Origin: a virus
Lineage: Duplodnaviria; Heunggongvirae; Uroviricota; Caudoviricetes
Strand: one strand, 5' to 3'
Virus record (IMG/VR): IMGVR_UViG_3300034091_000309
DNA: 38,660 nt
Position 1 is the stretch's first letter; each line of letters starts with the position of its first letter. The notes under the pieces were generated by a model. The model was not told where the DNA came from and ran no database searches. It was given only the letters and a program-made list of their open reading frames with translations. This document shows positions 1,504-12,978 of the stretch, one piece after another. Both the position numbers and the translations under genes were made by a program.

Positions 1504-3301
1504 TGCGGCAGATTTCGCAGCTCTTCAGGTGTTCGCGCATGTGCGTACTGCAATAGGTGCCGCACGGGGTAGCGTAGTAGGGGTCTTCCGGGTTGACCAT
1601 GGTGGTGCATCCCTTATGGCTGCATTGGCAAGGTTGCGCCTCTTCCGGCTCATCGTTTTGGGTATCATGGGGGAGCATCCCGGCGCGGGCCTTGCGGGTT
1701 TGCAGCGGAATCTTTTCCTCTGCGATGGCCGTTTCCCGCTGGAGCTGCTCTGCGTACCATTCCGGCTCGTTCGCTTCGATCCATGCGCGGAGTTCTTCGT
1801 CGATGGCATTCTCGCCGGTCAGGGTGTGATCCCCGCACTCGAACATATCCCAGTCAACAATCATCACGTCGATGTTTTCCGGGCAGGTGTGAATGTTTGC
1901 TACACCTTCATTGATTTCGATAACCACTTGTGCGCGGGGCGGGGCCGGTAGGGTTAATGGTTCGCTGATGGGGTCCAGCACGGCGCGGGCGCGCTCCTTT
2001 GCCGCTGCCACCTCCGGGTCCTCTTCCGGCTGTGAGATTCCGAAGCGGGTCTCCGTAGCGGCATTGACAGCATTCCGCATACACTCCGGGCAGACGGCGA
2101 GATGTTCATCTGTTTGTGGATGGTCAAGGTCTTCCGGCTCGGGGGTTGCCTCTTCTTTGTTTACCCACACCCATGCCGCAACCCATGCGCCTTTCGGCTG
2201 GCCAGCTTCGTTGACTTCGCTTAACGCAGCTTGGTCATCGATCTCAAGGTCATCGTTAGCATAGATGGAGCGCGCCTGGGCAATGTAGGCGGCTTGCTTG
2301 CTATCAGGCGGGGCGGGGGGTTGGGCCGGTCCGCAGTTCAGCTCTTCGCAGAGGGTATCTATGTCATCGGTACCCAGCGGCTCGGGTTGCTTGCCGTCCA
2401 CCACGGGGAAGTGATCCGGCCATGCTTCGTAGATATCCTTGGCCTCGCAGCCTTCGTACTCCCTTTGGAAGAGGCGAAGAGCGCAAAGCACAGTGGCCAG
2501 ATTGCTGGGGTCCGCCAGAGGGTTGGGGGTTGGGGCGGACGCGGCGTTATCGATGGCCGTCTTCAGCGCATCGCGCAGGGCTTTGTCGCCGCCCTTGCTA
2601 AAGGCATCGGTGGTGATGTTCTCCAGAGTTTGCAGTGTTGCTTTGCAGACGGTGAGCAGATCGGGCCGGGTGTTGGGGGATGCGAGATTAAGGAAGGATT
2701 CGGCAAGGTCGGCCAGCTCATGGCCCGCGTCATGCTCCGCATCGTCGGAATCGCCATCGGCGGCTTTTCTCCAAGTGGCAATGGCTTGACGCAGCGCGGC
2801 GGTCTTCGGCGTCTTCTTTGCGGCGGGCTTTGCCGGATGCTTCCGGCCTAGCAGGTCACAGGCGAGTTTCTGAAGGTCATCGGCCTCCGTGTTTCCAGCA
2901 GCGGCCATCTTCACAAAGTCGCGCACTGCGCCGGAAAGTGCGGCGGGTGATGGTTTGGGGAACTTGGCCGGGGGAGGTGGGAGCTGCTTTCCCTTGCGCC
3001 CCGCCTCTTCCCGGTAGTGGTATGCGGCGACATGCAAACGGCTCATAAAGTCGATGCCGTCCCGGTCGCAGAGGTGGGCGAGTTGGCAGAGGAGGTCAGA
3101 GAGATTCTGACGCTTGAGGTCGAGGCGCTGTGCCTTGGTCATGCCGGGCCTGGGCTTTTCGCCAGCGGTTTGGGTGTAATGCTTGAGTGTTGCGTCTGCC
3201 CACTTCGCCCGTAGGGCTTTCATCCGGGCGGGATCATCGCTACTGTTTTTACGCAGGATGCGCTCGGCGCGGGATGCCAGCTTGCTTTTCTTGGGGTTCA
3301 T
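1487..3301 (-). CDS. Mosaic multidomain phage early protein
   Basis: 604-aa ORF with SD (gagga); segments LSDLLCQLAHLCDRDGIDF and IYANDDLEIDD..GAWVAAWVWV resemble small phage hypothetical domains; Cys/His-rich C-terminus. Confidence 0.8.
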   Translation of the reverse strand: MNPKKSKLASRAERILRKNSSDDPARMKALRAKWADATLKHYTQTAGEKPRPGMTKAQRLDLKRQNLSDLLCQLAHLCDRDGIDFMSRLHVAAYHYREEAGRKGKQLPPPPAKFPKPSPAALSGAVRDFVKMAAAGNTEADDLQKLACDLLGRKHPAKPAAKKTPKTAALRQAIATWRKAADGDSDDAEHDAGHELADLAESFLNLASPNTRPDLLTVCKATLQTLENITTDAFSKGGDKALRDALKTAIDNAASAPTPNPLADPSNLATVLCALRLFQREYEGCEAKDIYEAWPDHFPVVDGKQPEPLGTDDIDTLCEELNCGPAQPPAPPDSKQAAYIAQARSIYANDDLEIDDQAALSEVNEAGQPKGAWVAAWVWVNKEEATPEPEDLDHPQTDEHLAVCPECMRNAVNAATETRFGISQPEEDPEVAAAKERARAVLDPISEPLTLPAPPRAQVVIEINEGVANIHTCPENIDVMIVDWDMFECGDHTLTGENAIDEELRAWIEANEPEWYAEQLQRETAIAEEKIPLQTRKARAGMLPHDTQNDEPEEAQPCQCSHKGCTTMVNPEDPYYATPCGTYCSTHMREHLKSCEICRNEFTD

Positions 3302-3350
3302 TCTTTCCTCGGGTTTCTGCCCGCCGTGGCGGGCGGTTGGTTTGGTTCGC

Positions 3351-3410
3351 TATCAAATGGGCCGGTATCAAAGTGGCCCCGCTATCAAAGGCCCGCTATC
3401 AAGGGCCGGT
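3351..3410 (+). repeat. Four short tandem TATCAA(A)..GGCC units
   Basis: TATCAA at 3351, 3366, 3383 and 3397. Confidence 0.75.
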
Positions 3411-3460: not shown

Positions 3461-3676
3461 TTATCGCAGGTGGAGTGTATCGCCATTTTTTGAGACCGCA
3501 ACCCAACCAAACAGGGTAGAGTCCCGGCGGACGTTATGCACAGGCCCGAAACGTTGCAAGGCCAGACCGTCTAGCAGGGCGCGCACGTCAGTGCGGAGTG
3601 TGACCCTTGCCCGGTGTATGGGCTTTTCTACGATCTGGCCCGCTTCCATGGTGGTAAGGATTACGTCAAAGGTCAT
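3461..3676 (-). CDS. Small hypothetical protein
   Basis: 71-aa ORF, co-oriented, with SD-like gaggg upstream. Confidence 0.65.
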   Translation of the reverse strand: MTFDVILTTMEAGQIVEKPIHRARVTLRTDVRALLDGLALQRFGPVHNVRRDSTLFGWVAVSKNGDTLHLR

Positions 3677-3704
3677 CAGGGTTAGTTGCCCTCTTTCGGT
3701 GTTG

Positions 3705-3758
3705 CCCGTTTCATCCTTTCGGGAATCATCGGCCCGGAGTGAAGAATCCGGAGACGGG
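3705..3758 (-). ncRNA. Candidate type III hammerhead ribozyme (variant core)
   Basis: Minus strand reads CCCGUC / UCCGGA-8nt-UCCGGG / CCGAUGA / UUCC-CGAAA-GGAU / GAAACGGG, i.e. stem III, GUC site, stem I, core, stem II, GAAA, stem III. Confidence 0.55.
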
Positions 3759-3788
3759 GCGGGCGGGGTTCCCCCCGCCCGGTTGAGG

Positions 3789-4973
3789 TTAGAAGTTAAT
3801 CGAGAGTATCCGGCCCGCTGCCTGGTCGATGGCCGTGCGGGTATCGGCGAAGGGGACCGTCTGAGAGTGGCGGGTGAGACCTTGGACGATTCCCCATACA
3901 GAAGAGGGCGAGCCGTCTTGCTCGGGAATTGTAGCGTCGTAACCCGCTTCCAGCGTCTTGCGGGGGAGGTTCACAGCGCGCATTCCAAAGAGGCGATCTA
4001 GGACCTGCTCTTTCGTCTCGCCGATGAAGACGCGGCGGGCTTCAGAGATTTTCAGCTCGTCCTGATCGGCGCCCTGGTTCAGATACCGCTGTAACTCTGC
4101 TTCGTAATGGTGCCAGCGGAGACGGGCAGTTCCGACGTGTCGGACGTTGATCTCCAGAACATCGGATGCTCCCCAGATGATGTGGTTTCCGCACATGGCC
4201 CGGTAGAGGAAACGCACCAGCTTCAGGGCCGATGCGCCCACCTCAGAGTTTTGTACAATCACGCCCCGCTGTAGGCCGTCTGGATTGCCCGGTTCACGGA
4301 CAATGGCGGTATCGTTCCGAACGAATGCAAACATATCGTGATCGGAAGCGTAGAGGGCGGGTAGAGCCTTGCCCGTACCTTTGCAGGTGGAGCAAGGGGC
4401 GGGAAGACAGGGAGACGTTAACGGGCCGGGAAGAGCGGGGGCCGTGCCGGTCCCGTTGCAGGTTTGGCAGATGGTAGGGTCCCCGCCGTCAAAGCGTTTA
4501 TCGGGGCGGGCGGGCGTCCATCCTTGCGCCTCAAGTTGTAGCAACCTCTCCGCCACCTCGTAATTCCAGATGCGGGCGTATTCATCGGAGGTAAAAGCCC
4601 GGAGCAGCAGACCTGCGTTATTGTGAAAAAGCAGGTTTGCAATGTCCGAGCGGTCCGCATACTTGGCCAGACCGTGGTTCAGGTTTTGACAGGCCAGAGT
4701 GGCGGGCAGTTCCCGGAGGTAGGATGCGGGCGCGCCCACTCGGGCGGAAAGTTGGCCGAATGCCCAGTGAGTGAGTAGGGCGGGGATGTTGGTCCGGCCT
4801 ACCAGTTGAACGTTCCCGTCTATCGCTTCCGTGCGGATGGTGGAGACGGGTACTTTCGTTTCGCGGGCGGATGCCGCGTAGAGTTTGGTTGCGTCATAGA
4901 GCGATTGGAGACTTTCAAACCGTTCATCGGCGGGGCGAGTAGCCCACTGTTGATGTGCGTGAAACAGTTCCAT
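3789..4973 (-). CDS. DUF932-family phage/plasmid protein with inserted CxxCxGxG Zn finger
   Basis: QWATRPADERF, LTHWAFGQL, LYASDHDMF, NSEVGASALKLVRFLYRAMCGNHIIWG and VRHVG motifs match DUF932 as I recall it. Confidence 0.8.
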   Translation of the reverse strand: MELFHAHQQWATRPADERFESLQSLYDATKLYAASARETKVPVSTIRTEAIDGNVQLVGRTNIPALLTHWAFGQLSARVGAPASYLRELPATLACQNLNHGLAKYADRSDIANLLFHNNAGLLLRAFTSDEYARIWNYEVAERLLQLEAQGWTPARPDKRFDGGDPTICQTCNGTGTAPALPGPLTSPCLPAPCSTCKGTGKALPALYASDHDMFAFVRNDTAIVREPGNPDGLQRGVIVQNSEVGASALKLVRFLYRAMCGNHIIWGASDVLEINVRHVGTARLRWHHYEAELQRYLNQGADQDELKISEARRVFIGETKEQVLDRLFGMRAVNLPRKTLEAGYDATIPEQDGSPSSVWGIVQGLTRHSQTVPFADTRTAIDQAAGRILSINF

Positions 4974-5038
4974 GGGGTGACCTTTCCGGGCAACTGTGAG
5001 CCTTGATGCGCTCTACCGTGCCCTGTGCGACTAGGGAT

Positions 5039-5068
5039 AGCTTAGGCCAAGTGATATTAGAGTGTCAA
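5039..5068 (-). promoter_or_regulatory. Sigma70-type leftward promoter
   Basis: Minus strand TTGACA-N18-TAAGCT about 65 nt upstream of the DUF932 start. Confidence 0.65.
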
Positions 5069-10836: not shown

Positions 10837-12978
10837 ATGTATTCGGAGCGCATCATACTCGCCAACCTGGACGAGTTCGCCGCCCGCGAGGGATGGAGGC
10901 CACAGTATCACTCCCTGGGCCAGATCGAGGAGTTCAAGGCCTACATCGACTCGCTCATCAAGATGGAGACCAACACCCGCAGCTCCTGGATTACCCTAGT
11001 CAAGACCATCAGCCAGAGGCGCCAGCAGGAGATCCGGCGCTGGATCGAGAACGAACAGGTCCTGTGCGCCCTGGACTCGAATTACTGGGAGAGCCGGTAC
11101 GCCTACGTCTGCGACGAGAAGGGCCATATCTTCAAATTCTGCAACCGCCAGTCGCAGGCGGTCTACGACTCGATCATTGCCGATTTCGACCTGAAACAGG
11201 TCTCGATCGAACTGCTGATCCTGAAGGCCCGGCAGGTGGGCATCACCACCAAAACGGCCCTGAAGTTCATCCACCGGCTGATGTTCATTCCCCATACCCA
11301 GGCCGTGATGGCCTCGGTGCAGGCCGACAAGTCGGAGCTGATCGGGCGCATTTTGGATACCGCCTACAACCGCTGCCCGTGGTGGCTGGTGCCGCGGAAG
11401 ATGCCCAAGGGCGCCTTTGACAATGGATCAATCCTCTCTATCCAGTCGGGAATGCAGGCCACGGGCATCGCCCAGGGGTGGACCCCGACCTGCATCCACA
11501 TATCCGAGTTGGCCGACATTCCCAAGCCCAAAAAAGTCATCGAAGAGGGGCTGCTGCCGGCCACGCACAGCAGCCGCAATCTCTTCATGGTCTTCGAAGG
11601 CACCGGAGGCGGGAATACCGGATGGCTGGCCGACAGTTGGCGCGACGCCAAAAAGAACTGGCCGAAGGGCCTGACGCGGCTCTGTCCGATCTTTATCCCC
11701 TGGCCGATGGCCACCGATCTCTATCCGGAGGCGGATTGGCTGCGCAAATGCCCGATTCCGGCAGGCTGGAGGCCGCTGGAAGAGACGCGCAAGCATGTTC
11801 TCCGCTGCGAACTGTATATCCGCAATACTCCCTACCTGGCCCAGATCGCCGGCGCGCATTGGCGGATGCCGCTGGAGCAGCAATGGTTCTGGGAGTTCGG
11901 GTACCGGGAGGCCTGCGAAAAGCATACGCAGAAGATCTGGTTCGCGCGGATGCCGGCGGACGACTTTGAGGCGCTGACCGGGGTGCATGACAGCGTCTTC
12001 GACCTGGAAACCATGCGAGAGATCGAAGAGCACGTATACGAGGTGCAAGGCGAGGGCGTGAAAAGAAGAAAGCCGGTGCAGACCTACGCCATCACCGGAG
12101 ATTCGATTGACGACGGCTTCGATCCGGAGGAGAGCGAGATCGATTGCGAACGGCCGCGCATCCGTGTGCATTGGGAATCGCACCGCGGGCAACGATATGA
12201 CTGGGTTTTGGTGCCGTTGAAGCCGGTAAACGAGGAGGTGGAGACGGACAGCTTTGACAAGCTGCTGGTCTTCGAGGAACCGCAGCCGGGCTACGACTAC
12301 AGTTGCGGCATCGATACGGCTGACGGGCTGGGCAAGGAGGACGAGGACCGGACCTGCGCCTCCATGACGCGGAACCGCTTTGGAGACGAGTTTGATTACC
12401 AAGTGGCCGAGCTTACCTCGAACCGGATCAACTCCGCCCAGATCGTGGGTTTTGCGGCCTGTATGGCCGCTTGGTACGGGGAGAATACGCGCGATCCGCG
12501 GGGGGTAAAGTTCTGCGTGGAGCAAATCAACCGGCCTGGCGATACCTGCCAGCACCAATTGAAGCTGATGGGCTTCCATTACCATCACAAGCCGCGGCGG
12601 TACGACAGCAAAAAAATCAGGGACGACAGCACCAAAAAAGAAGGCTGGTATTCGAATGTCTGGAGTGTGCCGATCCTGATGACGCGCTTCACGGAGGCGG
12701 TGAACGGCGGGTGGTACCGGCCGGCGTCGAAGTGGCTGATCGAGGAGCTGAAGATGCTGGAACGTCATGCGGCGGCAGGGAGGATCTCCAAGATGGAGCA
12801 CCGCAGCGGACAGCACGATGACCGGGTGCGGGCGGCGGCGCAATCGTTCTTCACCGCGCACGATTTCGACATTCTGGCCGAGCGGGCGCAAAAGCGGTAT
12901 GCGCTGCCAGCAGAAAAGAATCCGCCGCTGAGCCGGGCGGTGTGCTCGATGAGCGCGGTGAGTGTGGGGGAGTGGTAA
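10837..12978 (+). CDS. terL: Terminase large subunit
   Basis: Walker A-like ILKARQVGITT, HISELA, C-terminal RNase H-like GIDTADG and HDDRV; position upstream of the portal. Confidence 0.9.
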   Translation: MYSERIILANLDEFAAREGWRPQYHSLGQIEEFKAYIDSLIKMETNTRSSWITLVKTISQRRQQEIRRWIENEQVLCALDSNYWESRYAYVCDEKGHIFKFCNRQSQAVYDSIIADFDLKQVSIELLILKARQVGITTKTALKFIHRLMFIPHTQAVMASVQADKSELIGRILDTAYNRCPWWLVPRKMPKGAFDNGSILSIQSGMQATGIAQGWTPTCIHISELADIPKPKKVIEEGLLPATHSSRNLFMVFEGTGGGNTGWLADSWRDAKKNWPKGLTRLCPIFIPWPMATDLYPEADWLRKCPIPAGWRPLEETRKHVLRCELYIRNTPYLAQIAGAHWRMPLEQQWFWEFGYREACEKHTQKIWFARMPADDFEALTGVHDSVFDLETMREIEEHVYEVQGEGVKRRKPVQTYAITGDSIDDGFDPEESEIDCERPRIRVHWESHRGQRYDWVLVPLKPVNEEVETDSFDKLLVFEEPQPGYDYSCGIDTADGLGKEDEDRTCASMTRNRFGDEFDYQVAELTSNRINSAQIVGFAACMAAWYGENTRDPRGVKFCVEQINRPGDTCQHQLKLMGFHYHHKPRRYDSKKIRDDSTKKEGWYSNVWSVPILMTRFTEAVNGGWYRPASKWLIEELKMLERHAAAGRISKMEHRSGQHDDRVRAAAQSFFTAHDFDILAERAQKRYALPAEKNPPLSRAVCSMSAVSVGEW

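Follow-up and report, generated by a model that had tools for sequence, protein, structure and literature searches.

The window analysed here is a stretch of phage DNA of 38,660 nucleotides, with a terminase large subunit gene at positions 10837-12978. A leftward operon on its minus strand carries a DUF932-like gene, a 71-aa ORF and a 604-aa ORF that starts at 3301 (Table 1). The DUF932-like protein has 1398 homologues at E <= 1e-60 in the protein collection and no relatives in genome_contigs. Residues 164-204 of this protein weakly match the CXXCXGXG zinc-finger repeat of DnaJ (E 5e-4, short of the Pfam cut-off), and the sequence suggests a zinc-ribbon insertion. The 71-aa ORF has no family match in Pfam or PHROG and no relatives in IMG/VR. 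A possible promoter of the leftward operon, TTGACA-18 nt-TAAGCT, is located at 5039-5068 on the minus strand, about 15 bases upstream of the leader hairpin; it has a weak -10 element and was not picked up by the consensus scan. Between the DUF932-like gene and the 71-aa ORF lies the element that is the subject of this study, a candidate hammerhead ribozyme. The DUF932-like ORF ends 30 bases upstream of it.

Table 1. Coordinates of the features in the window and of hammerheads at related loci (positions in relatives are preceded by the locus).
Feature	Position	Strand	Remarks
DUF932-like gene, 394 aa	3789..4973	-	Pfam PF06067 E 6.7e-5; PHROG 1362 E 6e-29; stop 3791-3789
Conserved 5'-UTR hairpin	4986..5025	-	directly upstream of the ribosome-binding site of the DUF932-like gene
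GC hairpin, 8 bp	3761..3780	-	GGGCGGGG-GGAA-CCCCGCCC; between DUF932 stop and hammerhead; no U-tract
Variant type III hammerhead	3705..3758	-	sequence, descriptor scans, covariance model R1
Stem III	3758-3754 with 3709-3705	-	5 bp including A15.1-U16.1 (A3709 pairs with U3754)
C17	3753	-	predicted scissile bond between 3753 and 3752
Stem I	3752-3747 with 3738-3733	-	6 bp, one of them U.G
Loop I	3746-3739	-	8 nt, UUCUUCAC
Core C3-A9	3732-3726	-	CCGAUGA; C4 at 3731
Stem II	3725-3722 with 3716-3713	-	U.U (3725/3713) and 3 Watson-Crick pairs
Loop II	3721-3717	-	CGAAA
G12-A14	3712-3710	-	GAA
71-aa ORF	3461..3676	-	first gene 3' of the predicted cut; gene call on all identical contigs
Four tandem boxes, (T)TTGATAGC/TTGATACC	3349-3402	-	upstream of the 604-aa ORF; the last is TTTGATAGCGAACCAAA
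Canonical type III relatives	L114 1396-1454; L118 1186-1239; L265 1937-1998		
Downstream type III	L114, L118		strict descriptor
Downstream type II	L125, L127, L141, L162, L165, L185		stem III doubles as the post-stop hairpin
Upstream type III	L115, L116		strict descriptor
Upstream type I	L022		strict descriptor
Upstream, 8-nt core CUGAAUGA	L199, L114		relaxed criteria
Upstream subfamily with 8-nt core	L113 907-980; L114 85-158; L199 957-1025; L212, L218, L223, L262, L253		
Hammerhead relic	L115 1492-1571; L117 1713-1792		retains the stem III 5' strand and stem I; other sequence in place of the catalytic half

Read on the minus strand from 3758 to 3705, the element comprises 54 bases, CCCGU-C-UCCGGA-UUCUUCAC-UCCGGG-CCGAUGA-UUCC-CGAAA-GGAU-GAA-ACGGG, in which the single C is C17. 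The initial annotation proposed that all parts of a hammerhead ribozyme occur here in type III order, and the sequence bears this out. The stem III 5' strand is followed by the cleavage site, the stem I hairpin, C3-A9, the stem II hairpin, G12-A14 and the stem III 3' strand, and the RNA can form a three-helix hammerhead junction. Six of the seven positions of the consensus C3 U4 G5 A6 N7 G8 A9 fit; the exception is position 4, where U is replaced by C. G12, A13 and A14, the A15.1-U16.1 pair and an H at position 17 (C3753) are all present. The 10.1-11.1 pair, usually G-C, is replaced by U3725.U3713. Both deviations had been read correctly in the initial annotation, and so had the predicted cleavage position. 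Overall, 11 of 13 conserved core positions and all three helices are intact. Because two defining core features are absent, the element is best described as a hammerhead-derived variant and not as a consensus member. A contact between loops I and II, of the kind that supports hammerhead activity at physiological Mg2+, could take the form of UUC/GAA pairs; the loops are unlike those of the relatives and offer no covariation to draw on.

An Infernal search (cmscan) with the Rfam hammerhead models, which the initial annotation had named as a check, was negative over the whole window at the gathering score and over 3550-3900 (351 bases) at E <= 10. This negative result is uninformative: L114 and L118, type III relatives with consensus-compatible cores, also escape these models, as does L125, whose core fits the consensus. 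Among the relatives scanned with these models, only L127 was matched (Hammerhead_II, 32.3 bits against a cut-off of 37). A strict consensus descriptor for types I, II and III gave zero matches in the window and 0.03 matches per shuffle. With a relaxed descriptor, which allows one core mismatch and leaves 10.1/11.1 free, dinucleotide shuffles of the window gave 0.5 matches each, and 0.01 with stems as good as those of the element, the stem thresholds having been chosen after the candidate was seen. The only other relaxed matches in the window (14927-14818 and 525-357) were rejected as weak, long and implausible. A CUGAUGA at the next start codon (3678-3672) was rejected as a hammerhead core, having no supporting helices. 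Scanning IMG/VR for exact occurrences of the variant core pattern returned 82 matches, all of them unrelated chance occurrences, and blastn found no match among the INPHARED phages. The fold stability of the element is ordinary relative to shuffles (z = +0.56). Its hammerhead secondary structure has a free energy of -14.0 kcal/mol, 0.7 kcal/mol from the MFE of -14.7 kcal/mol; in the competing MFE fold, the GUC site is paired with GAUG of the core. No terminator-like site was called in the minus-strand spacer between the DUF932-like gene and the next ORF, and a terminator reading of the element was ruled out, since the minus strand has neither a U-tract nor a terminator-like site there.

The identity of the element was established by comparison with related loci. 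Homologues of the DUF932-like gene were fetched from IMG/VR (29 loci) and JGI metagenomes (80 loci), with more obtained via the protein collection, and a strict descriptor for all three hammerhead topologies was applied to these loci. A hammerhead of type I, II or III is located beside the DUF932-like gene in at least 15 related loci. In L114 and L118 it occupies the same slot as in the window, after the DUF932-like stop and an equivalent GC hairpin; an equivalent hairpin also precedes the slot in L115. The L118 sequence after the stop is GCCCCUC-UACCGGA-UAGUAAGG-UUCCGGCA-CUGAUGA-GCGC-AAAG-GCGC-GAAA-GGG, and that of L114 is the same with UUGACAA as the core. A canonical hammerhead of this sequence type is also present in L265; no DUF932 homologue was found close to it. 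The 5' half GCCCC-UC-UACCGG is common to these three loci, and the window has GCCCC-(G)UC-U(A)CCGG in common with them and, with L114 and L118, also the position.

A covariance model, R1, was built from six type III hammerheads beside the homologous DUF932-like gene in other phage contigs, with the window excluded. With filters off, R1 has a single match in the window, at 3703-3761 on the minus strand (27.9 bits, E about 5e-7), followed by a next best of 10 bits. The window scores 20-44 bits under all other intact type III members (48-72 bits). R1 further recovered the upstream copy of L113 at 48.2 bits, the downstream relics of L115 and L117 at 15.5 bits, and additional copies in six IMG/VR contigs fetched by short conserved patterns (L212, L218, L223, L262, L253 and L265). 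Five of these six copies precede a distant DUF932-like region by about 300 bases. In the type III alignment, which was fitted to the model, 14 of 17 pairs are changed on both sides, a level matched by 0 of 500 shuffles. Compared with stem II of the relatives, that of the window keeps three pairs, two of them through double changes. The R1 match, the common slot and the family alignment indicate that the element is hammerhead-derived and sits in a recurrent hammerhead slot. Comparative sequence evidence thus confirms the 54-base element as a diverged homologue of type III hammerheads, as opposed to a chance look-alike. The hammerhead identity given in the initial annotation is upheld by this homology to members with consensus-compatible cores, L114 and L118 having theirs in the same slot.

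The relatives differ in what they carry beside the gene. In an upstream type III subfamily, loop I (UAAUCGGU) is conserved and the core, CUGAAUGA, is lengthened to 8 nt by one additional base that follows A6; variation of this kind has been reported to be weakly active (PMC3088659). The upstream copy in L113, whose DUF932-like protein is 80% identical to that of the window, has the core UCGAAUAA, which combines C4 with the U3-A8 covariation, and every stem is intact. The change from C3-G8 to U3-A8 is a natural active variant (PMC3088659). In the relics of L115 and L117, the replacement of the catalytic half of the downstream hammerhead carries the TTTGATAGCGAACCAAA junction box, the same box that occurs upstream of the 604-aa ORF in the window. 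The closest relatives with sequence at the slot (L113, L206, L207 and L208; 80-82% aa identity) have no hammerhead there, and L209 (79%) has none in the 60-odd bases past the stop, where its contig ends. The empty slots in the closest relatives, together with the survival of only the 5' half in L115 and L117, show that the element is dispensable and can decay. The gene of the window is carried by 12 contigs, all of which were examined and seven of which were fetched; five have an identical full-length protein, and L197 and L198 have one mismatch each elsewhere. The element is identical in all seven, so they offer neither covariation for the window copy nor polymorphism that would show selection. 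Sequences of another kind were also observed beside the DUF932-like gene. L019 has a tRNA-like sequence at ~4180-4230, with a GGGGUUCGAAUCCCC T-arm, directly downstream, and L132 has an Rfam tRNA match with a long insert at 1199-1353 (44.8 bits), about 150 bases upstream of the gene.

The transcription unit of the DUF932-like gene also contains a conserved RNA structure that is separate from the hammerhead. This 5'-UTR hairpin was found in 55 of 93 distinct relatives and consists of an outer stem, CACGGU-N, a variable covarying inner hairpin, CACAGU-N and the other strand of the outer stem, followed by the ribosome-binding site. Its two ACRGU boxes, which may stand in either order, pair with one another on both sides of a central purine-purine mismatch and give the core a twofold symmetry. 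The U5-A1' pair covaries to A-U in L200, L131 and L138. When 49 sequences were aligned with MAFFT, without fitting, 96.6% of cells paired and 109 showed double changes, a result that 0 of 500 shuffles reached; slid controls gave 30-43% pairing. The hairpin has no match in Rfam, and a search of 656 kb of other viral DNA gave none either. In L113, L114, L115 and L199, the upstream hammerhead abuts it. The 5'-UTR hairpin may serve a dimeric protein as its binding site, which would make it a candidate translational operator.

We propose that the element is a diverged member of the type III hammerhead lineage that borders the DUF932-like gene in this phage group, and that it retains slow self-cleavage. 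We give this explanation as a whole a probability of about 0.47. The leftward operon would be transcribed through the spacer, and the RNA is predicted to cleave itself after C3753, at a rate lowered by the C in place of U4 in the U-turn and by the U.U in place of the G10.1-C11.1 pair. The upstream DUF932 mRNA would then end in GCCCCGUC>p (2',3'-cyclic phosphate), eight bases past the strong GC hairpin, which would become its 3'-terminal hairpin. A 5'-OH at U3752, followed by the stem I hairpin, would open the downstream mRNA, which carries first the 71-aa ORF and next the 604-aa ORF. Decay and translation could then proceed independently in each half of the polycistronic transcript. With a slow core, this separation would be partial and not complete. 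The type II relatives, whose stem III doubles as the post-stop hairpin, would arrive at this result by a different route, which suggests that a hairpin-capped 3' end of the DUF932 message is the outcome they have in common with the window. This would agree with the suggestion that hammerheads in phages divide long transcripts into messages for single genes (PMC3088659).

Studies of the two core changes bear on the activity of the window copy. The U10.1-U11.1 mispair is known from natural hammerheads, where it supports the highest activity of all mispairs (PMC3088659, Figure 5); Perreault et al. rejected candidates mispaired at 10.1-11.1 unless activity had been measured (PMC3088659). The A6-N7 phosphate interacts with U4 (PMC3088659), and a viroid variant with U4C is described, in the account of Ambros and Flores (1998) given in PMC3088659, as having considerably reduced activity in vitro with infectivity kept. 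Together, the two changes make efficient cutting by the window copy doubtful, and with it the separation of the DUF932 mRNA from downstream genes that the initial annotation suggested. Slow residual self-cleavage is what we predict for it, with close to even odds. A complete loss of catalysis also has a real, if less than even, chance. The element would then descend from an active type III hammerhead disabled by U4C and the missing G10.1-C11.1 pair, and would serve at most as spacer hairpins between cistrons. This is consistent with a deep mutational scan of a type III hammerhead, in which all single and double mutants of the CUGA U-turn were low in activity except the C3:G8 swap (PMC9901934), and with the inactivity of natural candidates having more than one deviating core position when they were tested (PMC3088659, Figure S7 legend). 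The undoubted relic in the same slot of L115 and L117, the empty or different slot in the closest relatives, the low R1 score of the window and the competing fold point in the same direction. However, 11 of 13 conserved core positions and all three helices are preserved, and compensatory changes leave stem II paired. Moreover, both deviations are the mildest known at their positions, and C4 recurs in the structurally perfect hammerhead of the sister phage L113.

That recurrence bears on two further readings. The core with C4 and U10.1.U11.1 may have been selected as that of an attenuated or condition-dependent hammerhead, which cleaves partially, or only at low pH or with high divalent ions; we consider this unlikely. 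C4 appears twice in the phage group, in the window and in the L113 upstream ribozyme, and under the selected-core reading it would for that reason be a substitution tolerated in the phage lineage. If this reading were true, the hammerhead and the 5'-UTR hairpin would place the DUF932 cistron under double RNA control. Activity conditional on the environment is quite improbable. In such a scheme, C4 would need protonation at low pH, or high divalent ions, to replace the imino hydrogen bond of U4, and cleavage would report the physiological state of the host. The role of U4 N3-H is taken from the A6-N7 phosphate-U4 interaction, protonation being our own addition. Perreault et al. considered that slow phage variants may be active under particular conditions, and a saltern variant needs at least 75 mM Mg2+ (PMC3088659), in line with such a scheme; the two occurrences of C4 also agree with it but, being only two, could be independent defects. 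Finally, the resemblance to a hammerhead could be accidental, the spacer hairpins being an ordinary terminator, attenuator or RNase site without hammerhead ancestry. The absence of an Rfam match, the unremarkable fold z-score and the 0.5 relaxed matches per shuffled window speak for this reading. Nevertheless, R1 matches at exactly the site of the element with E about 5e-7, the 5' sequence and position are shared with canonical hammerheads, stems as good arise in only 0.01 matches per shuffle and the minus strand has no U-tract terminator. An origin by chance is therefore very improbable.

Hammerheads flanking single genes in prophages have been documented (Perreault et al., 2011; PMC3088659), and an association of hammerheads with a DUF932 gene was not found in the literature searched. 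Like the phage and prophage hammerheads of that study and the type III family RF00008, the element in the window has the layout of a three-helix junction with stem III open, and the GUC cleavage triplet, G5, A6, G8, A9 and GAAA are intact in it. It is likewise located between cistrons of a phage operon, and the ribozymes of its relatives lie on one or both sides of a single gene. The window differs from these hammerheads in combining C4 with U.U at 10.1-11.1 and in having no Rfam match at the thresholds tried. L114, L118 and L265 resemble it in stem I and loop lengths and in having a short stem II capped by an A-rich loop. They have CUGAUGA or the covarying UUGACAA as the core and GCGC/GCGC as stem II, whereas the window has CCGAUGA and UUCC/GGAU; R1 scores them at 60-72 bits, compared with 27.9 for the window. 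The U4C viroid variant, as described in PMC3088659, has the same U-turn substitution, in a ribozyme that serves viroid replication and whose core otherwise follows the consensus. The natural U10.1-U11.1 hammerheads (PMC3088659, Figure 5) have the same stem II mismatch without the change at U4. The relic in L115 and L117 shares the slot, the stem III 5' strand and stem I with the window; of the two, only the window retains the whole architecture. What is particular to the window is the presence of C4 and U.U together in a copy of clear ancestry.

Phage hammerheads have been known since 2011, and their function is unproven. Taken alone, the element in the window is one more of them, possibly broken. 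Together with its relatives, it belongs to a natural series in one slot, with canonical copies in L118 and L114, the doubly deviant copy in the window, a relic in L115 and L117 and an empty slot in L113 and L206-L208. From this series one might learn which changes to the core are tolerated in vivo and how the ribozyme serves the flanking DUF932 gene.
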